From the NCBI RefSeq assembly GCF_964355755.1, contig NC_092671.1, positions 13,144,001 to 13,208,000 of the forward strand: 64,000 nt of DNA. The letters are read 5' to 3'. Numbering within the stretch: position 1 is the stretch's first letter; the number at the start of each line of letters is the position of its first letter. The notes beneath the pieces were generated by a model. The model did no database searches. It worked only from the letters and a program-made list of their open reading frames with translations, and was not told the origin of the DNA. The translations under genes and the position numbers were made by a program. This DNA is from Antedon mediterranea. Taxonomy: Eukaryota > Animalia > Echinodermata. Below are positions 411 through 46,806 of the stretch, in pieces.

Positions 411-772
411 TTCCTTTTTAATTTCATAAATCACCTGGTGGACAAGCATAGCATCCTGGTATGCTCCGGTCAGCAATGTATCTGCGTAACTGATAATATC
501 CTTGTTTACAAGGCTCACATATACCTTTGTTGCATACCATACCATATTGTATTGTAGTATATTTAAAGAAGTCAAATTTGATCTCAGTTTTATTTGTTAA
601 ACAATTACTGAAAAAAAAAATCACATTTTAAACCACTGAATTAATTAAAGGGGGAATATATTCATGTATATTTTATTAGTATGAGCGTAATATTTTCACC
701 AGAGACAACCCCTTCCTAAATGTAGTTTAAAGTAATGATTTCCTTTGTAGCGGAGTAGGCCACTATCTTATA

Positions 773-890
773 CTTGGTTCCCACTAGGGATATTTGACCA
801 ATCACAGGTGATAGATTATTGTTGCTTGTTATTAGTCAACTCGCTTGCGTTGCGTCTACGTCCTTGCGTTGCGTCCTAGTGGGAACCAAC
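773..890. mobile_element. Foldback MITE, family 1 (TIR gcttggttcccactag / ctagtgggaaccaagc)
   Basis: Terminal inverted repeats plus an internal ttgaccaatcaca/..tggtcaa inverted pair. Paralogous copy at 8234-8357; dispersed copies at ~32136 and 41466. Confidence 0.75.
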
Positions 891-2914
891 TTTTAAATAT
901 ATATCAAATTTATGAATAGGGAGGGTTACGTGTGGAGGAGGGCGTGATCAAACTATGAGTGGAGATTTACGGTTAAAGTGTGAAGAGAAGTACGCGAACA
1001 TCAGTTATTCGTTCATTTCTGTTTAGGATGGAAGATGGGAAAGTACACAAATCCCACAAGATAATTTTTAATTCAGATATCAAATATATTTACACCACTG
1101 TATTTCCAGACAAAGTCGATGGAATTTTTGTCAGTTGTCCACAGTCCAAGTAACTGAAAAAAAGAATATAGTATTGATGAATAGGCCTACGTACAAATGG
1201 TTATTGTTGAAATTTAATATATGCCTTTATTATTATTAATTTTATTGCACATTTGCTCTTACACTCACCAAACAGTTAATTTTTCCAGGACGTACGCCTT
1301 TATTTAATAAACTCAAAATAAATTTATCATGTAGTTTATTTTGTCTAGATTAATGTTGGTAATTTAGTCAAGTTGTTGAAATCTAATGATCTAAAAAGAA
1401 AATATTCACCATTTTATCATTTTCATTACATCTATTAATTAATTTATATGACAGATCCGACAAAATCGGCGGAAAGGGAAAACTTAAAATATGGCGTTTA
1501 AAATAAGTACCTGACATTCAATACTCGCTCTTCCGCGCTATCCTGGAAAACCCTTATATTAGTTCCACTAGTAAAGGAAATGTGAAACAGCAGTAAGTAA
1601 TTTTCACATGGATCGCAGTCGACTGTTACTCGTCGACAAATATATGAACGGTTAGATTAAGTGGACACTCACGTTGACGTTTCAGTAAACGTATAGTCTA
1701 GTAAAAGTATGGTTGAACATACATAGAACAAATTGCAACATAATTGTTTTGTCTGGTTGATATGGTCAAAATAAACGTCATATCCAAAGTTTACCAAAAT
1801 CAGACATCGGAAAGTGGGTTAATTAGCATAAATTCAAAATGGCCGCCATTTACCATTTTGAAGCCCTGTATATCCTGGACGGTTGATTTTAGACGAATTA
1901 AGTGCATTGTGAGTAGATAAAAATGTAACATTAAACTTCACAATTAGCATATTAAATATGTTTTAAATTAGTCTTAGGTACGTCATAAGGTAGGCCTATT
2001 ATGTTATAACTGCTTAAATGACTGGTTTTAGACCCGACAGTGAATTACGAGTAGAAATTAATAAATAAGATATAAAACTTTTCTTGAAAATTGATAATTC
2101 ACAGTTAGTAATATAATTTAACTTAAATTTAACTACATTTACTTTTGCAGTGATATGACGTCATACCCGTACTCATGTCAGAGAGCGAACGACAAAATGC
2201 CACTGAATAACATTTGACATTTGACGAACCAGATATAGCATAAATTGAGGTCATAGAGTAGCAGTCGCCATAGTCGACGTGAAAAGTCCTTATAGTACAT
2301 TACGTGAAAGTGAGCTTTTGTATCCTATATTAGTCCCTATTATTGATAAAATGTTCATTTCAGGCACACCATAACAATGTAATTCAAAACTTACATTTCG
2401 TTTAATTCGGAATGTCGAAGTAACGCATCGCTGGCAATAGTTGTGAGGTTGTTATTGTTCAGATATCTTTTTAAAAAATAGTAAGAAACAAATTGATTTT
2501 TAAGGGTAATAATATAGAAATATAATATATAAGAAAAAATCAAAAGGTTCATATACCATGAAAAATTACCCAAACAATTAATTTAAAATTATTATGTTTT
2601 CTTTGGAGTCACAAAACTGTTTTACAATGCTTTTCCGGGTATGTTTGTGCATGTATTTTAAACCAATCAAACTTGATTTGTTGTAAGTAGTATCAGTATT
2701 GGTGTGTTCGCTATTATTTGCTGCGATATATTTTAATTATTATGGCACTTCTTCCGTTAGTCCTCAACCTGTGTTCTCACTGTGTTTTATAATGTGGACG
2801 GGAATTAAAGACATGGTAGGTAATATTATATCTATAAAAACTGTAGTCCTGTAATAAAAACAAAGGGTATAAATAAAATATAACCGAAGACAGAATAAAT
2901 TGTTATTTTTATAC

Positions 2915-3012
2915 CATAACCCATATATCTTATAGTTATTTCAATTGTTATTTATATAACATAACCCATATATTTTATAGTTATTTTAATTATTTATAAA
3001 ATATAACCCATA
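2915..3012. repeat. Short tandem repeat (~45 bp unit containing ataacccatatat..tatagttatt), about 3 copies
   Basis: Directly visible; also present in the paralogous intron at ~15400-15485. Confidence 0.6.
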
Positions 3013-3734
3013 CATCAAGTAACTAATGCTATTTTAACGTGTCCCAATCAAATGACGTCATGATCAATAAAAACAATAAAATCGTTGTATCGTGAAGATT
3101 GTAGGCCTAATTGTTTGATCATGAGGTCAATTTGATTGAATATTTCACCGAAGACAGAATATATTTTTATTTTTATAGTTCCAGTATGAAAACGTTTATC
3201 ATTTATCTATTTATCGTCGTTCATTCTCGTGCTAGTATAAACGGGCCTTTGTGCTTTCTTGTTTCATTTTGTTGTGCTCTAGCAAAGGCTAAACTTATGG
3301 AACGCAGTTTACGCAAGTTATTGGTGATGATGAAAATTGCATCGATGAAACGGCGTTTCGTATAAACTTATCAAAATCATCGTTCTATTCAAAAGAAATA
3401 TGTACGCTGCGCACGTGATATAAGTATCAAAATCTAAGCTACTAAAATGTAAATGTGTTTTTAAACTCACAAATGTGTTGTGTTTTCAGGTATTCCAGCA
3501 GGTAAGTGATCAAGTCCACGTCCACTGCAATTGACTTTGAACCAATTGGTGTCGGGCGGAGATTCACAGATACATAGCAAACTGTTACTATTATTATTGT
3601 GCAGACAATCCAAGTGTGCATAGCAACACACGACGAAGCTATAGAAAAGAATAAAAGTAAACGAAGGACGTAAAAACATTTTCTACTTATCGCGCCCAGG
3701 CTGCAGAAATATACTTAATCTGAATTTCCAGCTA

Positions 3735-5729: not shown

Positions 5730-8700
5730 TTATATGCCATCACTTGACGAGGCGTTCAATAGAAAGATCTGTGAAGAACTCTCATGATTATACTCTGGAT
5801 CTGGAACAATCTGGTGTGTCCATCTTTCACAAATACTCTCTTTAACTTTCTTCAGTAAATCAGCTGCATAAGGTAAATAATATACAAAGTAAGTATTATT
5901 ACAATTATACACATAATGGCCTACATGTTGATTATAGGCTAAAGTAATTAATGAAAACTTACCAAAGACTAACACTAAGATGGACAAGTTAAGCATCAGT
6001 AGAATAAATGGTCTGATTTCATGAAGAAGAATAATTGAATCATCTGTCGTGTATAAAGAATCATCCATGTCAACAATTGTACCAATCGATAAGTTAACAA
6101 TTATGAAGACCAGTGTCAACAACTGAAATCTTTGATCCGATTTTTCCTTCATTGGCTCAAGATAAAGATGTAATGCAATAAGAATAACAGTTACAAACAA
6201 GGAATAAGACATGTTTGATGCTTCGTCATCTTTGAAGTTAGCGATAAGTGAAAGAATTGCTTTATTGTACATCTCAAATACTTCCCAGTACCAAAACCGT
6301 GAGTTGTATTGCTTACAAAAGAACTTTAATCCAACAATTTCTGGTCGTATACTATTAATATCTTCGTTATGTGAGGCATTACGTTTATATTTCCAATACA
6401 AAACGGCAACAACTGCAAGAGGAAAACCTATTACATATAGCAATGAAACAAACACGATGTTTTTGTTAGTATTGTACAGCGAACCATTATTATCTTCCAA
6501 ATTCATAATAGAATAGTCTGACGTAAGTATTTTCTTTGTATGATTGTGATTGTCATCTGATGTAACATTAAATGTACGAATCGACCAAGGACCTACGGCC
6601 ATGATATTTGAACAGGAATTTGCGTACGTTAAGTACATTAACATGATTGTAATTGATAAGCATTTGTCTTTTAAACGATGAGCTGTGTAATCACCACGAT
6701 ATCTATTGATAACGTGTAGCAGCAAGCAAACTGTTGACGCCAATATCAGAATAACGAAAGGTGTGGCTATACCAATATACAAAAGTGTATATGCATTCCA
6801 AGAACCAGACAAAATACACGCCGGACTGAGAAGATTAACATATCGAATAATGTCGAGATACTGTAAACTTTGTCCAACCGATTGAAAGTCTTCTGGCCAG
6901 TGAATTTCGTTTAGTTCAGATAGTATGCCAAGGATCTGATAGAAATTGATAGCTATCTTCATGTGAGTGAAAAAAGAACCCATGTGTGCGATACTTCTTT
7001 TATCTATCCGCCAAACTATGTATCCAATAACGGCGATTATTAAGATAATAACAGCAAATAGAATAATCATAATGAAACTCTTCTGACATTTATGACATTC
7101 GTTGAACAATTCGTAATAACCTGGTAAGCATGCGCCACATAACCATCCTGTATAACCACTGGAACAATTTGCGTCGATACCCCCTACGCAACTTTCTGAT
7201 CGTGGACACATAAACACAGCAGGTAATCTTCCATCGTAACTTGCATTTTTCAAAGCATCAGGATTACTTTCATTAAAGATGTTGCTAACTAAATGCGTAA
7301 TAAAATTATTGTACTTTTCTTTACTTTCTGGATCAAATCCCCAAAACCACCAGTAGCCCGTTAGCAATTGTTGAAAGTCACGTGCACAGTCGACACCTTC
7401 TGGACAAGGTTTGCATTCACCGAATCGATCAACACGATGGAAGTTATCAAGGCAATAACAAGCATTGAGATATGCTAATTGGTCAGTCTTAGTTCCACCT
7501 GGACATGTTTGACAATCATTAATCGTAGTAGCACCAGTCTTTTGCGAGAAACTTCCATTTGGACATGGTTTGCAGTTCTTAAGCCAGCTGCCTTCCTCAC
7601 TCATTCCCAACTCATCGTTGTAAAATCCTCCTGAAAATATACAATCGTACTATAATTAAACATTATTTTGTTCTTATCGTTTGAAATTAATTAATACATT
7701 TTCAGTATATCATCTCTTTTACATGTGGGTAAAATAAAAACTTTACAATACCAATCTGACAAATATTAAACAAGCCGTTGCTAATTTCATCATCATCATC
7801 ATCATCATCGTCGTCGTCGTCATCGGCATCGTCATCATAATCATGATCATATCCTCATCATCATCATTATTATTAATATTAATATTATTATTATAAATTC
7901 CTTTTTGATTTGACAAATCACCTGGTGGACAAGCATGGCATTCTGGTTTCACATTGTTTTGGCGTAACTGATAATGTCCCTGCTTACAAGGCTCACATAT
8001 ACCTTTAGTTTTGTTGCATACCATACCATAGTTTATATGAGTAAAATTAAAAAAGTCAAATATGATCTTAGTTTTATTTGTTAAACAATTACTGAAAATA
8101 AAAAACCAAAAACACTGAATTAATTAAAAATGAAAATATGTGTGTATAAACGTAATATCTTTCTCAAACCATTTTCAAATCTAGTTTAAACCAATGATAT
8201 CCTTATAGTATATGGCAGATACTTACATAAATTGCTTGGTTCCCACTAGGAATATTTGACCAATCACAAGTGATGGATTATTGTGGCTTGTGACTGGTCA
8301 ACTCGCTTGCCTTGCGTCGTCTACGTCATTGCGTTGCGTCTCTAGTGGGAACCAAGCTTTAAGTAGATATCAAATGATGTTTAGGATGGGAGATGGAAAA
8401 GTACACAAATCCCAAAAGATCAAATGTATTTACACTACTGTATTTCCAGACAAAGTTGATGGAATTTTCGTCAATTGTCCACAGTCCAAGTAACTAAAAA
8501 AAAAAATATTAGTATTGATGCATATACAAATTAATATTGCTGAAATTCAATGTAGGCTTTTAATTGTATTAATTTAAATACATTATTCTATTTATGCCAT
8601 AACTTACACCCCCCAAACAATAAAACATTTCACAGGACGCAATCGTCCATAGTTTATTTTGTCTAAATTACTTACACAATTGAATCATTTGACATGTTAG

Positions 8701-11700
8701 AAAAGCTTTTCTCTTCGATAAAAGTGATTGGATTATTGAACAAGTACCTGATAAATGAACAAATTAAAAAAAAATGTGATGTATTGTTAAAATGTTGATG
8801 GACCTAATAACGTTACTACGGTGATTGGGTAAAATAACGAAAAAATCAATATTGCAGTAGATCGTATGAATACACATATATATATATATATTACTATACC
8901 GGTAGTCTACAAATGGCATAATAATTCTTTTGCTTGTAATACTTAACGTGTACACGATTAAAGAGTGACGTAATCTGAGTTAGAAAAGCGTGTAGAAATA
9001 AAAGTTCATTCTACTTACAGTTTTTTCATTACTCCATTTCTAAACGTTCCATTCGTTATAGTTTCCAGCTTATTTTTTTGTAAATACCTGAGGAGTTACC
9101 AACATGATCTTCTAATTTATTTATGGTTTTATTAATATTAATTTTTTTTAAAACTATATGCTTGATATTATTATACACGACTAAATGCTAGTAGACCTAC
9201 AAGTAATAAATACAACAATATCAACTTCTAGTGAGTCTCAAACCTTTACCCGGTCAGTCTAATTTGATATTTGACTTAAGTACAAAAAACACATTAGACT
9301 TACTGCAAATCTGTATTTAAATTAATTATTATTAAATTTTTAAATTTTAGTCCACCAGATGTTTCGATTTTTCTGATTTCAAGCTTTTATTTTAGACCTA
9401 CATATGAAACGGAATGGTTTGAAATACAGGTTAGAAATTAGACTAAAACTAAATATGGCCCAAACTGAATGGATAAACAATTCAAACGCTGTAAATATGT
9501 CCTATTAAGTACATTATTATTTTATTTTACTCACATGACTTCAAAATCAGTATCATCAAATGCTCCATCTTCAATGTACGATATTTCATTATGGTCAAGC
9601 ATTCTATTAAAAAGAAATATTCAACTTCTAATCTATTGACTCTATTTACTAATATTTTCGTGATCGTCACAGCTGTCACTGTTGTCGCAGCCACCCAGAG
9701 GCGTAGGCTGGCTGTTGTCTGGGGGACAGATGCGAAATTTGTAAATGTGGAACCCTCAAATGGGGCTGAGCTAAAACAAATTTGAAAAATAGAGCTGCTT
9801 AGGTCCTTGGAAATTATACTTATTTGAAACGGTTAGAGTTTAGGACCAGCCCCATCATGGCTGGCCGGCTGAGCTAAGACCATTTTTAAAAAAGAGCTGC
9901 TGGGTCCTCACTCATACTTTGAAAATGACCGGTCTTGGCCTAATAAAGTGGACCCAGCCTACGCCACCGATTAGATTCATCACCATGATACTCATCATCT
10001 TTATTATGACAATTTTTAAATACGGTAGTCATTGAAGTTACGGATTTGGTTGTCAAATTATCATTCACCGCGACTCCACAATTCCTTGAATTAATGATGA
10101 TACTTACAATATATTTAGGTTTTTACAACCTCTAAAACTTGCTTTTGAAATTGTTTTAATTTTATTCCTATCCAGGTACAAGTATTGAGGAAAATACTTA
10201 GATTGAAATAAAGATCCATTTCCAAGTGAAGAAATGTGATTGTTATCCAGCTGACTGAAAATAAAATATCATATAAGTTGTTATTTATCATTCTGACATG
10301 TATAGGAAATCGTTTCATTTCAGTAACACCAATATTTACCTGTGCCTCTCGCTTTTCTCATAGGGGTATTTAATGTATACGGTAACAATTTTCAGAGGTA
10401 AATAAACGCAGTTCTGATTGTGGTACATTACTGTACTGTATCAAGTTGATTCATTATGAAATAAACACGAGTATGTATACATTCTAAAAACTTCTGTGAT
10501 AAAGGATCTATGTATAAAGTATTATTTAAATATTGTTTTAAAAGCATAACGAACTTAGTTACACTTACAGAGATTCACGGATTAGGAGGTTATACAATGC
10601 TGAAGGAAACACAGTTAAAACATTGCTAGAAACAGACCTTCAAAAGAAAACAATGCAGTATAAAGATCAATTTAATTACTGGCTTTTGTAATAACACAAC
10701 CGTAAACCACAAGAGTTTATTTGAAAACAAGATACGCAACCAATGCTTTTCCATTTCAAATATTGACCGATATTAGAATGTGGTGTAATGTATACTTACA
10801 AACTAAAAACACCAATTAGATCTTTAAATGCTTCTGGATGAATATCACCAATCTTATTAGCTTCAAGTCGTCTGAAAACAAATAGATTGAAAAACACAAT
10901 ATTCTTGATTGATAAAACTAAAGTAAATTATTTTATAAATTTTGAATTAATTAAATAAAATACTTACAGAGTGTTTAACCAAGTTGTATTAACAAACAAT
11001 CTTGCTGGTATCGTGGTAATTTGACTATATGTAAGGTATCTGTTAACAATAAAATACTATATAAGTATGAACAAAATAAAAAAACAACACACACAAACAA
11101 ACAAATAGAGGGAGATCTCTAAAATTGAAGAGCTAACTTACATTCGACTTCCTGATGGAATATTTGCGAATGCTCCTGTTGCCAATTTCAACAACTGATT
11201 GTCAACATATCTGTGAAAAGGTAGATAATGTCCAAACCACATGCTAACTATTCACGAAGTTTATACATCAACATTATTTGACATAATATTTATATTACTT
11301 TTAATATCTTATTTTGTACATTTGTTATTGTTAGTTTTTATTATATTCAATCGAAATATATTATATAAAATGTATGTTTAAAATTAACAAAACGCCAGTT
11401 TCTTTCTTCTTTACACGTAGTTATTCTCTTAAGGTAATTTACACAACCCAAAACAAAAATGTTTATGGTACAAAACTTACATTTCAATTAAAGATTTACT
11501 GGTAAAGAAGAAGGAGTTTTCCACCAATTCCTTAATATTAGTTTCTCTGAGATGTCTAATAGAATAAAAGTTGAAGTTCTGATTTAAAAACATAGGCCTA
11601 CTTAATGCACTTAATGATAAATAATATAATATAGTAAGACGATATGTTAGGCCGAACAAGAAGAAATATTTTAGCATAATATATAATGATATCCCGCCTA

Positions 11701-14700
11701 GATGTAGAGTGGATTGTGACCTAAACTGCTGATATTAAGCGTCAGCATTAGCGCGTACAACATTAGCGACTTTTCGTTTTAATGATGCACCGTGGAGGAG
11801 GTGTAAAAAGACAGGATGGTCATTATAAAACGTCAAAGTGTTGAACGTATAGTTATGAAAAACTTTAATTTTTTCAAATAATTCAATTTTGCTTTGCAAT
11901 ATTTTTTTATCCAAAAAAACAATAATAAATATTATACATTATACGTACATTCTGTTAATACGCTGTAGACCAGAAAACGTAAATGGTTCAATTTGCTCCA
12001 GAGTACTATTACTAATGTCACTGAAATATACAAAGGGTGATTCAACATATTTTATTATTAGTGCGTAACTAATGAAAGTACCATGTTTAAACGCAATGTT
12101 AGTTTAGTTTTGATACGACGATTGAAAAAACCCAAACAATCGATTTTTGTTTAATAATAGTATTGTTATTTAACTGAAAACTATAATTAAATTAAATTGC
12201 ATAGGCGTACCTATGCCTACATTTTTTTAAATTTCTTTATTATCATTATTATTATCCTCATTCTCATTATTATCTTTATAATTTTTATCATCATCTATAT
12301 AATCATTATCATCATCTTTGTAATCATCTTTGTAATCGTCTTTTTAATCACCTTTGTAATCATCTTTGTCATCATCTTTATAATCATCTTTGTAATCTTC
12401 TTTGTAATCATCTTTACAATCACCTTTGTAATCTTTTTTGTAATCATCTTTATAATCATTATCTTCATCTTTGTAATCGTCTTTGTAATTGTCTTTGTAA
12501 TCGTCTTTGTAATAATCTTTGTAATCGTCTTTTTAATCACCTTTGTAATCATCTTTGTAATCATCTTTATAATCACCTTTATACTCATTATCTTCATCTT
12601 TGCAATCGTCTTTTTAATCATTTTTGTAATCGTCTTTTTAATCACCTTTGTAATCATCTTTGTAATCATCTTTATAATCATCTTTATAATCATTATCTTC
12701 ATCTTTGTAATCGTCTTTGTAATCGTCTTTGCAATCGTCTTTGCAATCGTCTTTGTAATCGTCTTTGTAATTGTCTTTGTAATCGTCTCTGAAATCGTCT
12801 TTGCAGTCCTCTTTGTAATCGTCTTTGTTATCGTTATCATTATTATAATTCTTATTACCAGCAAAATTATAATATAAGCCTATTATTTATAAAAGCTTAC
12901 ATATTTCTAACAAAAGATCCTTGGAAAGTCGTCCTCGTTAGCTTCCTAATAGGATTACCATTCAATATTCTACAAAATGCGAAAAATAAAAAGGTATGAT
13001 TTGTAATTAATTGATTATTTAATTATTGACTGAATTGATGCTACAGTATAACCTTTCTCTCTCTCCTCATACTATGCTAAATATAATATAATATATAATA
13101 AAATAATGGCAGATGAACTGATGAAATAATTTACTTACATTGTGTCAAGTCGAGGTAAATTTGTAAATGATCCATCGACACACCTCAACCTATTATAACT
13201 CGCAGATCTTTAACATGAAAATATTCAATAAAGAATACATAATTATACATTAAGTGCATTATTATGCCAAAGTTAAATGTTTTAATTAATGTATAATTAC
13301 GATGGTATAATAAATAGTAGTTATGACCACAAATTATGTACCGCCGGTCTCCTCTGTCCAATGTGATTATGCTTTGAAAATACAGTTGGGAAACAACTAA
13401 TTCTCCATGGTATAGTTACTTAAAAAGCAACAGACATACACTTAAGTTGGGAAAAATGTAGGCCAGTGACAACATTTAGCTGATAACTTACATTGTGGTT
13501 ATTTTCTTTGGAAATTTTGGTAATTTAGTCAAGTTGTTGAAATCTAAAGATCTGAAAAAGAAAATATTCACCATTTTATCATTATCATTAAATCTATTAA
13601 TTAATTTAAATGACAGATCCGTAACAGACAAAATCAGGAAAGGGAAAACTTACAACATGGCGTTTAAAATAAGTACCTGATACTCAATACTCGCTCTTCA
13701 CCCGCTATACTGGAAAACCCTTTTATTATTTACACTAGTAAAGGAGTGTGAAACAGCAGTAGCGAAATTTAGATTTGAGTGAATGTGCACGACGTTCACG
13801 TCCACATGGATTACAGTCGACTGTTACTCGTCGACAAATATATGAACGGTTAGATGTGGATACTCACGTTGACGTTTCAGTGAACGTATAGTCAGTAAAA
13901 ACAAAGTAAGAACAAATTGCAACAGAATTGTTTGTTTTGTCTGGTTGATATGGTCCAAAAGTTTAACAAACATCGAATATCGGATAGTGGGTTAATTAGC
14001 ATACATTAAAAATGCCGCCATTTACCATTTTGAAGCCATGTATGTCCTGAACGGTTGGTTTTAGACGACCTAAGTGCATTGATGACATTAAACTTCCCAT
14101 TAAATATGTTTTAACTTAGTCATAGGTACGTCATATATTATTGTATAACTGCTTAAATGACATTATCCTACTGAAAAAAATCTATAAACTGCAGGAAAAC
14201 AAGTTTCTTAACATTTTCTTGTTTTTACCAAAATCGGACATCAAAAACAGGGTTAATTAGCATAAATTTAAAATGGCAGTTATTTGCTATGCCATTTGAA
14301 GCCCTGTATCTTCTTAAAGGTTGGTTTTAGACCCGAAAGTGAATTACGAGTAAATAATAATAATAAGATATTAAACTTTTTTTGAATATTGATAATTCAC
14401 AGTTAGTAATATAATTTAACTTAAATTTAACTACATTTACTTTTGCATTGATACGACGTCATACGTCCACCCGTACTCATGTCAGAGAGCGAACTGAATA
14501 AAACCCTAAATTTCAAATTTGGCAGTAGCATAAATTAACGTCATAGACTAGCAGTCGTCATAGTCTATATTATAGTATCTGTATTACATCAACGTTAGCT
14601 TTGTGTCCTACATTTGTCTCTATTATTGATAAAATGTACATTTCAGGCACACCATAACAATGTAATTCAAAACTTACATTTCGTTTAATTCGGAAAGTCG

Positions 14701-17409
14701 AAGTAACGCATCGCTGGCAATAGTTGTGAAGTTGTTATTGTTCAGATATCTTTTTAAAAAAGAGTAAGAAACAAATTGATACAATTATTTTAACTTTCTA
14801 CTTTAAATCAATAACATTTTACCACTCAATGGAGAGTTAAAAAAATTAACAAAACACAGCCACTGTCACACACAGCCACTGTGCAAATTGGGACTGGACC
14901 GTTTTAGAGGTGTTAACCACCTGTAGATCCTTCACTGAGTTAGTGAGAAGTCGAATAAATAAAATAAAAATAAATAAAAATAAAGGATGATATTATAGAA
15001 ATATAATATATAAGAGAAAATCAAAAGGTTCATATACCTTGAAAAATGACCCAAACAATTAATTTAAAATTATTATGTTTACTTTGGAGTCACAAAACTG
15101 CTTATGTGTTGTACAAAGCTTTTCCGGGTATGTATGTTCATATCTTTTCAACCCTGTCAAATTTAAATGAAAGTTACTCTACCAAACATGTCTTTGTAAG
15201 TAGTATCCGTATTTGGTGTGTTTGCTATTATTTTCTGCCGCACTAGTTCTGTTGTCCTAAACCTGTGTTCTCATTGTGTTTTAATAGAATATAATGGACA
15301 GGAATTAAAAACATGGGTAATATTATATTTATAAAAACTGTAGTCCTGTATTTAAAAAAACCAAGTATATATAATATAGCCGAAGACAGAATTCTTATTT
15401 TTATAGTTATTTTAATTGTTATTTATATAACATAACCCATATATTTTATAGTTATTTTGATTGTTATTTATATAACATAACCCATAGGCCTAAATCGAGT
15501 AAAATATTCAGCGTACAGACATTGCACGATAAACAACCTCGGTAAATAGATATACATAACCGTTTATACTATCTAACTAATAACTTTTTATCATGATTTT
15601 AATCATGACGTCAATTTGATTGGATATTTCACCGAAGACAGAATATATTGTTATTTTTATAGTTCCAGGATGAAAACTGTTATCATTTCTTTTGTTTTCT
15701 GTAGAAAAACTGTATCTATATATACATTTACGTAAGGGCAAAATTCTGTAAATCGCGCCTTACTTTTAGAATTTTTACTCGATGGTATGTAAAGTTGGTT
15801 CGTACTTTCGGTACTGATTTTAACCACCTGATGTAACCCTGTTTACTAATTAAATTAAGTTAGATAATTAGTTATTGACGATTAAAACGAATTTAGGTTC
15901 AACGATTTGCCCCAGATAGGGGTGTTTTCCGATCGTGGTATACACTGTCTAATGGATGTCTATCTTGAAAAATACCCGCCACAAAAATGCGAGGAGGCTT
16001 CGCATTTTCCTATCTCCTCCTACAATAATTGTTTTTAATAGCTGAAAACCGGTTGAACAGCTCGAGTACAGTATCATAATGTTGAAGACAGGCCGATTTT
16101 CTTTAAAAAATACTATTTTGATAGATTTAATATACGTTTATACAAATGTATTGATTTGCGATGAATGGAACATTCCAATCTCTGTGTCGTTCCACAAGTG
16201 TCTATTCCCTCAGGCGTCGTAAAGGAAAGTACTGTATACTCATAACAGAAATTCGATCCTTTTTTTTTTCAATCTGTGCTGCAGAGGTTGGATATAATTT
16301 TTTTTAATGGATAATGAGCTAGCGTTTTCAGTCGCCGTAATTTAATATTTATTACCGATTAAATCGAATTTATGATTTGCCCCGAATAGAGGTGGTTTTC
16401 ACAAATTGTTTAACATTATATATAAACATACGTCGTAGTGTATCGTTACATGTACTGTACTATTTCAATCGACTACGACGGTGATAGTTTCAACAAAGTA
16501 TTACATCGCAATGTTTTACTGTGTTTAGTGGTATATTATTTGTAAAACATGTTAATTAATATTTCGTTACAAAATAAAGACTATATTTAAAAATTGTTCC
16601 TCTTTGCACCCATCCTCTTTCCCATCTCTCAACCATAATGTTACATACAAAACACAAATTAAGTTTGTTTAAATTTGACTTAAACAATTGGTCTCATTTT
16701 GTGACAACATTCTCTTTCGGAAGTAATTCCCAGTGTGCTAATTTTAGTTGAGTACATAAATCACAGTGTCTATTTAATCGTTCCTGTAAACGACATATAT
16801 TATTGCCCTGCATTATTGTACATTTGAAATCGCCAGTTTTTTAACGCTGAAATTACTGTGTATTCGAGAACCATCTGTGGGCACGACCTAGATGGTACGC
16901 GAGCGAAGCGAGCGTACCATCTAGTATTTATAATTTATCTATTTATCGTCGTTTATTGTCATGATAGTATAAACGGGCCTTTGTGCTTTCTTGTTTCATT
17001 TCGTTGTGCCAGCAAAGGGCAAACGTAAGGAAAACAGTTTACGCAAGTTATTGGTGATGATGAAAATTGCATCGATAAAACGGCGTTCCATACAAACTTA
17101 TAAAAATCATCCTTCTATTCAAAAGAAATATGTACGCCGAGCATGTGATATAAGTATCAAAATCTAAGCTATTAAAATGTAAATTTGTATTTAAACTCAC
17201 AAATGTGTTGTGTTTTCAGGTATTCTAGCAGGTAAATGAACAAGCCCACGTCCATTGCAATTGACTTTGAACCAATTAGTGTCGGGCGGAGATTCACAGA
17301 TACACAGCAAACTGTCATCATTATTATTGTGCAGACAACCCGAGTTTGCATGGCAACACACGACGAAGCTATAGAAAAGAATAAAAGTAAACGAAGAACG
17401 TAAAAACAT
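5730..17409 (-). CDS. LRR-containing, Cys-rich, multi-pass membrane receptor (copy B), 19 exons, about 1098 aa
   Basis: Hand-spliced GT-AG exons keep one open frame: 17201-17409, 14678-14749, 13492-13551, 13139-13207, 12901-12969, 11949-12020, 11481-11555, 11142-11210, 10968-11039, 10800-10871, 10569-10637, 10108-10254, 9535-9603, 9019-9087, 8676-8747, 8434-8493, 7922-8091, 5963-7630, 5730-5863 (total 3297 nt). Contains a signal peptide, LRRNT (CICE..VNC.GRGL.HLP..IP.NTTHL), LxLxxNxI repeats, CxxCPxG repeats and about 9 hydrophobic helices. Confidence 0.9.
5963..7630 (-). CDS. Large exon 18 of copy B: Cys-rich (ephrin-receptor-like/GCC-type) repeats plus multi-TM domain
   Basis: Core of ORF 5730-7610. 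Acceptor tttcag at 7631, donor G|gtaagt at 5962. Motifs CKPCPNGSF, CQTCPGGT, CSSGYTGWLCGACLPGYY, MKIAINFYQIL..I.WP, YWEVFEMYNK, YLEPMK. Confidence 0.93.
7786..7895. repeat. (ATC)n/(GTC)n/(ATT)n microsatellite in intron 17
   Basis: Directly visible trinucleotide runs. Confidence 0.85.
8234..8357. mobile_element. Foldback MITE, family 1
   Basis: Perfect 16-bp TIR gcttggttcccactag...ctagtgggaaccaagc. Shared with copy A, so it predates the gene duplication. Confidence 0.8.
9696..9969. mobile_element. MITE with CAG(T/A)GGCGTAGGCTGG termini (hAT-like)
   Basis: cagaggcgtaggctgg at 9696 and ccagcctacgccaccg ending 9969; internal direct repeat ggctgagctaa...agagctgct. No clear TSD. Confidence 0.65.
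12300..12835. repeat. 12-bp minisatellite (atcatctttgta / atcgtctttgta)n in intron 5 of copy B
   Basis: About 40 degenerate units between LRR exons 12901-12969 and 11949-12020; accounts for the spurious ORFs 12197-12877 and 12295-12864. Confidence 0.95.
13965..14340. repeat. Two copies of a repeat fragment (ggttaattagcata..aaaatggc..gaagcc.tgtat..ggttggttttagac)
   Basis: Copies at ~13965-14070 and ~14225-14335; a single full copy in paralog A at ~1790-1895. Confidence 0.55.
15715..16924 (+). mobile_element. Complete 1210-bp non-autonomous Helitron-like element in intron 1 of copy B
   Basis: A^TCTATATATAC 5' end; 3' hairpin CTAGATGGTACGC-GAGCGAAGCGA-GCGTACCATCTAG^T at 16888-16924; absent from the paralogous intron of copy A (~3200); second copy at 1-410. 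No RepHel ORF. Confidence 0.9.
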
Positions 17410-18217
17410 TTTCTACGTTTAGTACTGATAGCGGCCAGGCTGAATATTAGCTATTACGATTATTGTCCGAGTCAAATATAATAGTTAAAATTACATGTTA
17501 CTTCCTTATACATTATTTTCCAATGAATGAATGAATCTTTTCAGTTTTAATTCTTGAGATCACTCACAATTGAAAGGCAAACACCTTTAGTTAAATATTC
17601 TATTATTAGGCCTATAGAAATTTTATTAAGAATTGGTTTCCTATTCTATGTTTATAAGGGAAAAGTGAGATTCTTCCCTTTTCGGTGTGACGTATGTGAC
17701 TTTAATTTTACGCTATAAAATTGTCTTAAAATGAAATTGTCTGTTATTATTCTCAGTATATGTGATCACCATAAGCGTATATTCGATCGGGCTATTTTGA
17801 GCAGATTTATTAGAGATCTAGCTGCTCCAAGTCCTTTTATTTTATTTTTATTAAACCTTATTTAAAGAGGGTAACCAAACAGTATGCTGACACTCAAGGG
17901 ACCTTCATAACAACCTTGCTGTTTTTTTTTTCTCTTTTGTGGCGTTAACCACTATTTTATTCATTTCATTCTCAAATGATCAATACAATGATTTTACACT
18001 TCATCCAAATATATATTCTCTGTTCTGTTATTTTCTTGTCCTTTCTTTTATCTTTTGTACGATTTGATCGAAACAATTCGGTCATATATATATATATATA
18101 TATTGGGGCGACTTTTTCTCATTCTCACAGATTTCCTCATCTTTATCGTTTCAAATTAATTAATTAAATTTCAGTATATCACCGGGCGGTTTAGAATTAA
18201 TGTTCTTTGCCTGATTT

Positions 18218-18220
<3 letters not shown>

Positions 18221-18279
<59 letters not shown>

Positions 18280-18767
18280 CATACTGTAAATTATAGAAAC
18301 AGTGCTCATATTCGGAACATGATCTCATAATCGCGTCGAGCATAGCTCATTGGCGAAAGTTCCGTATTATTTAGTTGTATGAAAAAATGTCTGGCGGGAT
18401 TCGAACCTGCAACCTCTCGCTTACAGGGCGAGTATCATACCACTAGACCACAGAGCCATGTATGGTATTATCACAGATTTTCACCCACCAGATACATTCT
18501 CTCATACAACAAACGCCCTCACAATCAGTGCAGGCTTAACAAGTCAGTGGTATAACAAGTCAGTGGTATGATACTCGCCCTGTAAGCGAGAGGTTGCAGG
18601 TTCGAATCCCGCCAGAGACATTTTTTCATACAACTAAAAAATACGGAACTTTCGCCAATGAGCTATGCTCGACGCGATTATGAGATCATGTTCCGAATAT
18701 GAGCACTGTTTCTATAATTTACAGTATGATTTATATATAATTTACACAGTGCTACGCAACATCATTG

Positions 18768-18850
<83 letters not shown>
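18221..18850. mobile_element. (TA)n-embedded foldback element with ~170-bp inverted arms containing a tRNA-like unit
   Basis: (TA)n 18221-18276; arm 18276-18444; spacer; inverted arm 18562-18732; (TA)n 18771-18850. Arms are nearly perfect reverse complements. Confidence 0.85.
18388..18457 (-). tRNA. tRNA-like / pseudo-tRNA (Pro-like body, TGT at the anticodon position) inside the foldback element
   Basis: GGCTCTGTGGTCTAGTGGTATGATACTCGCCCTGTAAGCGAGAGGTTGCAGGTTCGAATCCCGCCAGACA then TTTTTT: A box, B box, anticodon stem CTCGC/GCGAG and Pol III terminator. C at position 33 and acceptor/T-stem mismatches argue against a translational tRNA. Confidence 0.55.
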
Positions 18851-18851
<1 letters not shown>

Positions 18852-22684: not shown

Positions 22685-23944
22685 ATGACGTATTCTGAGT
22701 GTGTTAGTGAAGATGAATACTACATTTGTCCATCTGAATTCGGGGACTCGTCTAAAACATCCTGCTGTATCGATAGCTACGGCGTTGGACAGTGCTGTGT
22801 CCCAGAGACGATAGGGGCCACTAATGATCAGCCTTGGGCCGGCTACCAGACAGATACGTAAGTTATAGCACAATATCATTGTATGGTGTGTGATATTTAT
22901 ACTAATTATGAATAAATATGTTTATAAATGTAATAAAATAATAATAATAATAAATATTGAATAGAAAATTTAATTTTGTAAACTGATTATGTTAATATTA
23001 TTAATTTCAATGTCTAATTAATTCTATATCGGCATCGGCAATAAATTCAACAATAAAATATTAATGTTCTCTGTTGTATGGCGGTATCTCTTTTAACTTA
23101 AAGCAAACGTGATTATATTAATATTCTGCTTAAATCTATAAATTGATCAAGTGACTAATTGTAATTTTCATTTTTTTATCTTGTTTATTAACACATCCAT
23201 TATTAAATCAGTAGGCCTATTCAATGACTGAAATAAATAGAATATGCCTGCAACGTATATGCATATTGAATACTAAAGATTATAACTGAGATTAATATGA
23301 AATATACAGTAGTTCATAACGTTGAGATGATGATAATAAAGTTGATGGAAATAATAATTATCAGGTTTCTGAAATATCATCGTATATTTATTTTGTAGAG
23401 TAATAATATTTAAATAGATTCATAAATATTTAAATGTTTACCAAATTACCACATTTTCTTCTTATTTTACAGTCCTATGATATATTATATGGATTATTTA
23501 TTGATATTCGGAGCCAGTGCTGTATTGTTAGTGATAATGGGACTACTGTGCTGTGAATACTCGGATTTTACTTTAGAACAAGACAACTCGTATCTAATTA
23601 AACAACACTCAGTTGCACCTAACACTAGATTTTCCGAACCTCACGACTACAATGGTAACAATTTCCGGGTCCTTCGTGAGTATAATCGGCACATCGACAA
23701 TGTACCTTCGGCACCGCCGAGTTATTACGAAGAATTTGACAACGGAACCTTCGGTCGCAATTATGAAAGACACCACTATCCCGAACAATTGACTGAAAAC
23801 ACCAACACTTTTAAAAAGTCGAATCAGCATTGCCATACAGACACGAAAATGCAATATCAATTAGAATCAACGTCGTGCCACAACTGGTACCTTCCACCCT
23901 CCAACGCTCCTCGACGATCACCTTCCTTTAATGATTGGTCTTGA
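22685..23944 (+). CDS. Shisa/WBP1/VOPP1-like single-pass membrane protein, about 214 aa, 2 coding exons
   Basis: Exon 22685-22857 (MTYSECVSEDEYYICPSEFGDSSKTSCCIDSYGVGQCCVPE..., donor gtaagt) splices in frame to the acceptor tttacag at 23473. Six-Cys C..C..CC..CC ectodomain, TM, juxtamembrane CC, and a PPSY motif. Confidence 0.82.
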
Positions 23945-44500: not shown

Positions 44501-44960
44501 CGGGCGTAAGGCATACTATTAACTCAAACATAAGGTACGATTTTTAAGTAGTATTTCGTAGTAGTATAATCGAAATCCTGCTTAAAATTTTCGCTAGTAA
44601 TTTTTAACTAGACTCATAATCATATAGTCATAGAAGCGAGTGTAATTTCCGTTTACTGTTCCTTGACGAGACGATTGTAAAAATTATAAATTTTAAAGAA
44701 TACATAATACAAACAATAGGCCTAGGCCTATATCTATAGGCCTAAAGTCAAGTGAACATTATTTTCTATTTAAAGATACTACTTAACAAAGTTTAGCAAC
44801 ATTTTTTAAGTTATCGTTATTTTTTATTCTTCCGAAAAAAAAACATCAACAAAAAGTAACAGATATTACTGTGAGAAAATCACACTTACTACCACTAACG
44901 TGGCAACACGGTTATTAAATGCAATGCTCTTGCTTCTTCTAGACATATTTGTTGTCTTAC

Positions 44961-45156
44961 CTTCAACGCCTGGTGCAATGTTATTTCGTAGCGAACGCAT
45001 GGCTGGTAAAGGATAATGTTTACTACAAACCATTCTTCCATTTCCATCCATCTCGCACCTCTGTCTTTTGTTAAGCTTACTAGCTGTAATACATTCTCCT
45101 TGATATGATAGCAATACTACATAAACGATTAGTCCTATAATACGGTTGGTATTCAT
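44961..45156 (-). CDS. Putative secreted peptide precursor 2, first coding exon (KR-QRCEMDGNGRMVCSKHYPLPAM..)
   Basis: Hydrophobic signal peptide, KR site, Gln-initiated C-x9-C peptide, RSLR furin-like site, donor GAAG|gtaaga at 44960; TATTTAAAAA at 45217-45226. Next exon not identified. Confidence 0.68.
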
Positions 45157-45592
45157 GATTTTTATGTTAGCTAATCGGCTACTACAAGTACGAATGAAAG
45201 CAGAATCTTCTCCAAGTTTTTAAATACATAGGTGCTACATAATAAGTTGTATAAAACTTATTACATAAGCAATTATATGATTACGGTATGTCAATTAATA
45301 ATCAGACAAAATAGATTATAATGAATTAATTTGTATTATCTATATAAATGTATATTTATATTAGTAAATAGATATTTAATTGAAATAATAGATACATATT
45401 CTCTGGAGAACGGTACTAATTACGAAATAAGTTTTGTGTTTATTCGATCTAACGAGAGGATGTGACGTTTACACCCATATTTCCAAATAGGTATCATTTC
45501 GTACAAATATTTATAATAAGTCTTCAAAGCAATTATGATTATATGGACATCAGATTATACTGGATGAAGCTTGTCTGGGTCTGTGTTTATAA

Positions 45593-46760
45593 TCAAGGGA
45601 ATATGCATAATGTTCCACCGTCGTGGTCGATAGTTCTACAATCTAAAACAGCAAAAGCTAAAACACAAAAAATTCATCCCTTTGTGGTCCAAAGAGGGCG
45701 GTATTTACTTACTGTAAATTATGGATGGAATTTTACCTCTACAATTATTTAACGATGTGAGTATTAGGTTGATTGAAAAGTTCATTATTAGAATAATTTA
45801 GTTGTATTTTCGACATTGAAAAACAACACACAAACAACAACTTGTTCAAAATTTGTTTGTCGACTTTTTTAGGTACAAGAACAGTATTTACAGTTCGTTC
45901 CTATATTTAACTTAATTCTACGAATGATATACCGGTATAACGTCATTTGAAGGGGAAAAAAGAAAACAAAAAGGCTGTTCTTGTCAATTCCATTTTATGT
46001 ACCTAGTTGTACTCTTCTAAAATTTTAGGTTCCAGACGCCGATTCCACTTAAATTGCTATAAATATTTTGGCCCACATGGCATTTCATACGTACAATACT
46101 TTATCTTAGTTTTACGAAAATCGAAACGCTGACTGTTGGGCAACAACATAAGACAGAAAATAACTATACTTCGGGCAAGTATACAGTAGATGTATAGAGA
46201 TAATTATCTACTAAACTAACTACTAAAAATAATGAGTGTTATATAATCCTTCACCACATTTAAGGTTAAACTAAGACGTAACTACATTTACTTTATCAAA
46301 AACACATCGGGTAAACCAGAAATGTCTTCATTTTTATATAAACTAATAATGTAATCAATAATTGTAACATGATAAACTTACGTGTATTGGAGTTTGATAA
46401 GTACTCCATTCCAATGGGTGGGGTAAACGGTGTTGGATTTAGATTCAATTGATGATGACGGTGATAGTAGCCAGAGTCTTGAAAACGATCATCTTGATTC
46501 TCCAAATATATTCGGTTATCAACTGAGTAGGGACGCTGTGGTGGTAGACGGTACAATCCACTCAGCGAGTTACTGACAGCATCATGTCTTTTGCCAACAC
46601 GAATTGGAAACTTTGGTACACTGCGTTTTTTAATGTATTGTTCTGCATTATGCTGCCCTAATATAAAGCATCTTGATGGTGCTAGTAACACGTATAAAAC
46701 TAAGCACAATAAGTATATACATCTTTTGGACACGTTAGCGGTCATTTTGATGTTTTTCAT
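45593..46760 (-). CDS. Putative neuropeptide precursor 3, luqin-like (SVPKFPIRV-amide; C-terminal C-x10-C), 142 aa, 2 exons
   Basis: Exon 46382-46760 (signal peptide, KKR-SVPKFPIRV-GKR, donor C|gtaagt) joins exon 45593-45642 (acceptor ttttgctgttttag) to end SNTHCRTIDHDGGTLCIFP*. Confidence 0.82.
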
Positions 46761-46806
46761 TTTGTAACTGAAGCGAATGTGTATGTTGAATTAATATCTG
46801 GGTGAT

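Follow-up and report, generated by a model that had tools for sequence, protein, structure and literature searches.

The window analysed here, a 64,000-nt stretch of AT-rich animal DNA (31% GC), carries on its reverse strand a gene of 19 exons that encodes 1098 aa (5730..17409, start at 17409, stop at 5730). The 19-exon model is a single open frame with GT-AG introns, and it agrees letter for letter with the Antedon mediterranea protein XP_071942540.1 (our P0003). With exon 18 as the query, a 1098-aa Antedon mediterranea protein was retrieved at 100% identity. In the model, 18 exons were placed from splice sites, and the LRR exon 12020-11949 was placed via the NCBI protein. The gene is real, with a frame unbroken across 19 exons, and the start, the stop and the big exon (7630-5963) given in an earlier sequence-only reading of this DNA are the same as ours.

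The protein consists of a signal peptide, an LRRNT cap, 16 LRRs, Cys-rich repeats, a DUF7630 domain, nine predicted membrane helices and a 44-aa tail, with all exons on the reverse strand. Exon 1 (17201..17409) encodes aa 1-69, with the signal peptide-like N-terminus and the LRRNT. Exons 2-16 (8434..14749, aa 70-441), all of phase 2, encode one LRR unit each except for exon 12, which has two, and this gives the count of 16. They lie at 14749-14678, 13551-13492, 13207-13139, 12969-12901 and 12020-11949 (exons 2-6), at 11555-11481, 11210-11142, 11039-10968, 10871-10800 and 10637-10569 (exons 7-11), at 10254-10108 (exon 12), and at 9603-9535, 9087-9019, 8747-8676 and 8493-8434 (exons 13-16). The LRR region ends in exon 17 (7922..8091, aa 442-498), which also encodes the first GCC2/ephrin-receptor-like Cys repeat, while exon 18 (5963..7630, aa 499-1054) covers the remaining Cys repeats, DUF7630 and the entire membrane domain. 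Exon 19 (5730..5863) encodes the tail, predicted to be cytosolic, and the stop. The last intron (5864-5962, reverse strand) is 99 nt long, in frame and free of stops, so that its retention would insert 33 residues right after TM9.

In the Pfam scan, the LRRs are matched by LRR_8 (E=1.7e-42) and also by LRR_5. The LRRNT match is weak in XP_071942540.1 (E=0.058), and it reaches or approaches the cut-off in some homologues. Six CxxCxxG motifs follow, of which four are CxxCPxG, so the earlier description of an LRRNT, about 16 LRR units and CxxCPxG repeats is borne out, the LRRNT weakly. DUF7630 (PF24633; 7086..7214, reverse strand, aa 638-680), a Cys-rich cap immediately before TM1, is above its cut-off (E=2.9e-8, 34.2 bits vs 27). 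In addition, Ephrin_rec_like is matched below its cut-off (E=4e-4), and a TNFR_ELAPOR1 match is weak.

The nine membrane helices (5967..7079, reverse strand) are predicted from an AlphaFold model, family hydropathy and loop charges, in line with the earlier estimate of about nine helices and a short tail. They span aa 683-710, 712-736, 778-810, 815-843, 882-918, 947-962, 968-989, 995-1024 and 1029-1053. The AlphaFold model, based on a 126-row alignment (pLDDT 87.5, pTM 0.86), has nine long helices; in addition, the TM2-3 loop contains short helices and the TM4-5 loop forms a beta-hairpin. Hydropathy of the single sequence gives only six clear peaks in the membrane region; TM2, TM4 and TM6 are polar, and they emerge in the model as long helices and in the family-mean hydropathy, which marks all nine helices, TM6 being the weakest. 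The predicted topology has the N-terminus outside and the C-terminus inside. The family mean net charges of the TM1-2 (+2.1), TM3-4 (+4.4) and TM7-8 (+0.6) loops fit the positive-inside rule, and those loops predicted to lie outside are either neutral or acidic; the exception is the long TM5-6 loop, which is net acidic despite its predicted cytosolic side. Among 152 aligned cores, the DUF7630 cysteines, K723, Q730, D870, W947, E948, E951, K955, H986, P991, Q1001 and N1011 are conserved at 70% or more, and the conserved polar residues sit in or beside helices. The tail after the aligned core has a median length of 32 aa in 71 LRR-bearing homologues. Such very short tails could not accommodate a signalling domain, which makes the membrane core the probable effector. 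When solved structures were searched, none matched the domain over its whole length.

These results speak against several familiar identities. At E<=0.5, XP_071942540.1 has no Pfam match to TIR, kinase, 7tm or ion-channel families, and it contains no DRY, NPxxY or GPS-like motif, just as the sequence-only reading had stated. A Toll-like receptor is rejected because the core is multi-pass and comes without a TIR, and an LGR or another rhodopsin- or adhesion-class GPCR is largely refuted by the nine predicted helices, with none of these motifs and no 7tm match. The verdict that the protein is neither Toll-like nor an LGR therefore holds; neither an alignment with a 7tm family nor a characterised orthologue was found. 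Nor do profiles support a canonical TRP or polycystin channel, with no Ion_trans or PKD_channel match at E<=0.5.

Just downstream of the gene lies a tandem partial duplicate (435..3679, reverse strand), with copies of exons 1, 2, 16 and 17 that are in frame and have intact splice sites. A deletion cuts its exon 3 and removes LRR exons 3-15, and the rest runs beyond the window. A 128-aa sequence, P0067, opens with the exon-17 sequence of the duplicate and then jumps to the TM5-TM7 region. Judging from these features, the duplicate is probably degenerate, or else a short-ectodomain variant. In DNA runs, the 3' part of exon 18 (5963-6860, reverse strand) has ~2x single-copy depth and is near-identical to the paralogue P0013, which suggests that the TM exon was recently duplicated or underwent gene conversion.

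Other features of the window were also observed. Two inverted 419-nt copies (1-419 and 15706-16124), 96% alike and of very high depth in DNA runs, are a high-copy mobile element, with one copy in intron 1 and the other in an intron of the duplicate. A small inverted-repeat element at 18214-18851, with 124-nt arms that are 99% complementary, inner 63-nt arms and (TA)n flanks, is MITE- or SINE-like. Three ORFs have no Pfam match. The one at 46296-46790 (reverse strand) is like a neuropeptide precursor exon, with a hydrophobic leader and a short peptide between KKR and GKR, so that an amidated C-terminus, ...FPIRV-amide, is predicted. Another, at 44866-45219 (reverse strand), which starts like a signal peptide and in which KR precedes a stretch with two cysteines nine residues apart, is possibly another secreted peptide precursor exon. 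The third, at 23426-23944 (forward strand, 172 aa), has one hydrophobic N-terminal helix followed by CC and PPxY motifs, and looks like a small single-pass adaptor protein.

We have searched the 426-aa core with phmmer against 1.84 billion representatives at 50% identity, and obtained 2242 matches at E<=0.001, 306 at 1e-10 and 50 at 1e-30. Among the best 150 of the 2242, 55 have at least 400 aa ahead of the core, and 45 of these 55 carry at least three LRR motifs. Organisms were sought for 20 of the best 150; six gave none, and the others gave Antedon, Asterias, Patiria, Holothuria, Apostichopus, Montipora, Nematostella, Rhopilema and the sponge Oscarella, and no other phyla appeared in this sample; members from Amphiura and Anneissia were found in further searches. 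LRR-bearing homologues are thus present in four echinoderm classes as well as in cnidarians and a sponge. The Nematostella members include A7SVP3 and A7RJF1, and UniRef has a 'DUF7630 domain-containing protein' for Nematostella. Distant homologues bear GCC2/ephrin-like, beta-helix, TIG, HYR, He_PIG or BspA ectodomains. Among them is P0203, in which a beta-helix, Cys repeats and the shared membrane core are followed by a protein kinase domain at the C-terminus.

A maximum likelihood tree was built from 50 cores picked from the 152, with a midpoint root. In this tree, 34 rows fall in one clade (100/99), which holds every animal-assigned sequence plus five other LRR-bearing ones. This clade includes the sponge, a group with cnidarians (96/93) and the echinoderms (97/90), in which crinoids (100/100), asteroids and holothuroids show expansions of their own. 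Two LRR-bearing sequences, P0125 and P0191, lie outside the animal clade, so the LRR fusion likely arose more than once. The long branches of the outgroups make the deeper relations unsure.

Antedon has at least nine distinct sequences on five contigs and Anneissia at least ten, both numbers being lower bounds; together with the separate expansions in the tree, they confirm the earlier proposal of a lineage-expanded family. Identity to the nearest paralogue, P0013 (adjacent accession), rises from 66% in the LRRs through 82% in the Cys region to 95% in the TM domain, and for four other Antedon and Anneissia paralogues the identity is 31-44% in the LRRs vs 53-63% in the TM domain. That is, the LRRs vary between paralogues while the membrane core is conserved. 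Such variable LRRs on many paralogues point to ligand recognition, though LRRs often evolve faster than TM domains irrespective of role. The crinoid cores also differ from the others. R954 is found in 0 of 16 cores of the crinoid clade vs 133 of the 136 other cores, and the TM4-5 loop of the crinoid clade has lost a Cys pair that 128-133 of these 136 retain. These losses indicate that the crinoid function may have diverged.

The sequence-only reading had likened the membrane motifs to Cys-rich multi-TM proteins of protists and to the fungal PKD2/FLC domain, and both resemblances stand. On the fungal side, the gathering cut-off of PF06011 is passed by three homologues (P0039 from Patiria, P0198 and P0169), although XP_071942540.1 itself has no match at E<=0.5. 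In one scan, 11 of 54 homologues match PF06011 at E<=0.01, one of them above the cut-off, and many homologue matches span the last four helices only. S. pombe Pkd2 is described as having nine predicted helices (bioRxiv 10.1101/2022.08.11.503631) and as passing Ca2+ upon stretch when reconstituted in vesicles (PMC9727806; also reviewed in PMC12028594). The FLC family is portrayed in PMC9600462 as confined to fungi and as sharing hardly any identity with human TRP/PKD2. Despite their name, the PF06011 'TRP/PKD2' proteins have nine helices and do not resemble the canonical TRP channels, which have six TMs.

On the protist side, the comparison is with the cysteine repeat modular proteins (CRMPs), i.e., Toxoplasma CRMPa/b, Plasmodium PCRMP1-4 and Tetrahymena CRMP1/2, with Dictyostelium Q86I19 as the outgroup. 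Six core motif blocks are colinear by eye, in an unscored match, with the CRMP cores in the available supplements of PMC9815656: CP..C...C...LC..C..GY before TM1, KI..N[FY] in TM2, [LM]F..Y in TM4, IG[FI]PL in TM5, F/Y...W[YF]WE.....[RN]K before TM6 and H....P after TM7. The spacing from the F/Y before TM6 to W-Y-W-E and R-K is, by eye, identical in CRMPa. The core also retrieves proteins that bear GCC2/ephrin-like, beta-helix, TIG, HYR and He_PIG ectodomains instead of LRRs. In PMC9815656, Singer et al. describe the CRMP core as EGF-like domains plus nine TMs, term the family apicomplexan-specific, use Q86I19 as the outgroup, report that none of its homologues has a solved structure and predict that A and B pair as a heterodimer. 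None of the supplements of that paper contains the terms Nematostella, Amphimedon or metazoa. According to Sparvoli et al. (PMC9670195), CRMPs have the N-terminus outside, are required for contact-triggered exocytosis in Toxoplasma and Tetrahymena, and are proposed as host-contact sensors, a view restated in a 2026 paper (PMC13739732). Overall, CRMPs are the closest characterised family to the Antedon core, and the nine-helix core is likely homologous to both CRMPs and fungal Pkd2/FLC.

What might the protein do? That it is some kind of surface sensor we consider quite probable. More specifically, we tentatively favour, as a reading that may well be wrong, an LRR-gated sensor that would admit Ca2+ to drive secretion or defence, since the two branches of the core that have been characterised, both distant relatives, serve in secretion triggered by contact and in the entry of Ca2+; the channel evidence across the superfamily consists of one reconstituted yeast protein. 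The LRRs would bind microbial or cell-surface ligands, and the Cys-rich stalk and the DUF7630 cap would couple this binding to the helix bundle, where K723, Q730, D870, E948, E951, K955, H986, Q1001 and N1011 might form a gated polar path. The output would be Ca2+ entry and exocytosis, perhaps through a paralogue dimer like CRMPa/b.

On the other hand, the protein might be a non-conducting receptor whose LRRs sense the ligand and whose core signals via partners or G proteins, adhesion-GPCR-like in function and not in fold. We regard this as unlikely, although the large TM5-6 loop could bind effectors and P0203 carries its C-terminal kinase, because there are nine helices and not seven, the tails are very short, and DRY occurs in 5 and NPxxY in 1 of the 152 cores. 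Sparvoli et al. propose such a role for CRMPs, which bear the PANTHER label 'GPCR-like', but deny that they are bona fide GPCRs (PMC9670195, in part). In the available text of PMC9815656, CRMPs act in complex with single-pass partners and an escort function is discussed, and across the two papers the authors suggest GPCR-like signalling or an escort role; no CRMP channel activity is reported in the available text of either. A role of the core in moving a small molecule or escorting partners, with the LRRs as a cargo or uptake receptor, is improbable. The earliest link made for the FLC family was indeed with import of FAD into the ER (a title cited in PMC9600462), and the conserved polar residues in the helices would suit a transporter equally well, but a 16-LRR ectodomain that varies over many paralogues suits recognition better than housekeeping transport.

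A surface receptor for adhesion or self-recognition, with endogenous ligands in development, fertilisation or tissue contact and not a sensor in defence, we hold to be distinctly improbable, for the separate crinoid, asteroid and holothuroid expansions without one-to-one orthologues are less typical of conserved developmental receptors, even though adhesion is another role of LRR ectodomains and CRMPs sense cell contact (PMC9670195). That the gene encodes a divergent LGR or some different 7TM GPCR, or that it is a duplicate without function, is very improbable, being largely refuted by the helix count and the family assignment together with the absence of a 7tm Pfam match and the intact 19-exon frame, against which stand one holothurian homologue auto-named LGR4, a weak 7TM_GPCR_Srw match below the cut-off in 1 of 54 homologues (E=0.0012) and the partly deleted neighbouring copy.

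The membrane core is of a known but poorly understood kind, CRMP-like and Pkd2/FLC-related. We have found no description of the LRR-fused animal branch in a literature search that covered few subscription journals and few supplements, nor a characterised orthologue, which agrees with the earlier statement that the protein is poorly characterised. The family comprises overlooked, multi-copy, likely surface sensors of non-model animals, whose current automatic labels ('uncharacterized', LGR4, IGFALS, carboxypeptidase N2) derive from the LRRs alone, and it joins two groups handled apart in the cited literature, CRMPs and the fungal 'TRP-like' Pkd2/FLC. Since Nematostella has members, the function is directly testable in a genetic model, and the compact 426-aa core is a good structure target. 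We may further speculate, as an unlikely possibility, that early animals had a third LRR sensor class beside TLRs and LGRs: an LRR-gated nine-helix Ca2+ channel of CRMP/Pkd2 type, retained and repeatedly expanded in sponges, cnidarians and echinoderms, which would couple the recognition of microbes or prey directly to secretion, for example in coelomocyte degranulation or cnidocyte discharge. If this were true, alveolate CRMPs and fungal Pkd2/FLC would share one membrane fold without a solved structure, and CRMP-triggered exocytosis may itself be channel-based.

Compared with known systems, the Antedon protein shares with CRMPs a Cys-repeat ectodomain, a Cys-rich cap ahead of TM1, nine TMs and an outside N-terminus, the last two as predictions. 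It differs in its 16 LRRs, where CRMP ectodomains are made of MAR, Kringle, lectin or beta-helix domains, in its 1098-aa length and 44-aa tail, in its animal host, and in belonging to a family of many young paralogues instead of a conserved A/B pair. The fungal Pkd2/FLC proteins (S. pombe Pkd2, Trp663 and Trp1322; S. cerevisiae Flc1-3) likewise have nine predicted TM helices beneath an extracellular domain, but theirs is an ML/Ig-like TRP_N ectodomain; the N-terminal ML-like TRP_N is absent from the Antedon ectodomain, which consists of LRRs, Cys repeats and DUF7630. Toll-like receptors, which in echinoderms are also expanded with variable LRRs, have an LRR ectodomain too and differ in their single TM and TIR, while LGRs and glycoprotein hormone receptors place theirs on a multi-pass domain that is a rhodopsin 7TM (7tm_1). 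Finally, canonical PKD2 and Chlamydomonas MST3 likewise fuse a big ectodomain to a membrane domain named 'PKD2-like'. MST3, whose PKD fold is genuine and includes TOP and pore domains (PMC11015965), does not fit the Antedon protein, which matches neither PKD_channel nor Ion_trans, and a common fold of canonical PKD2 and fungal Pkd2 does not follow from their shared name.
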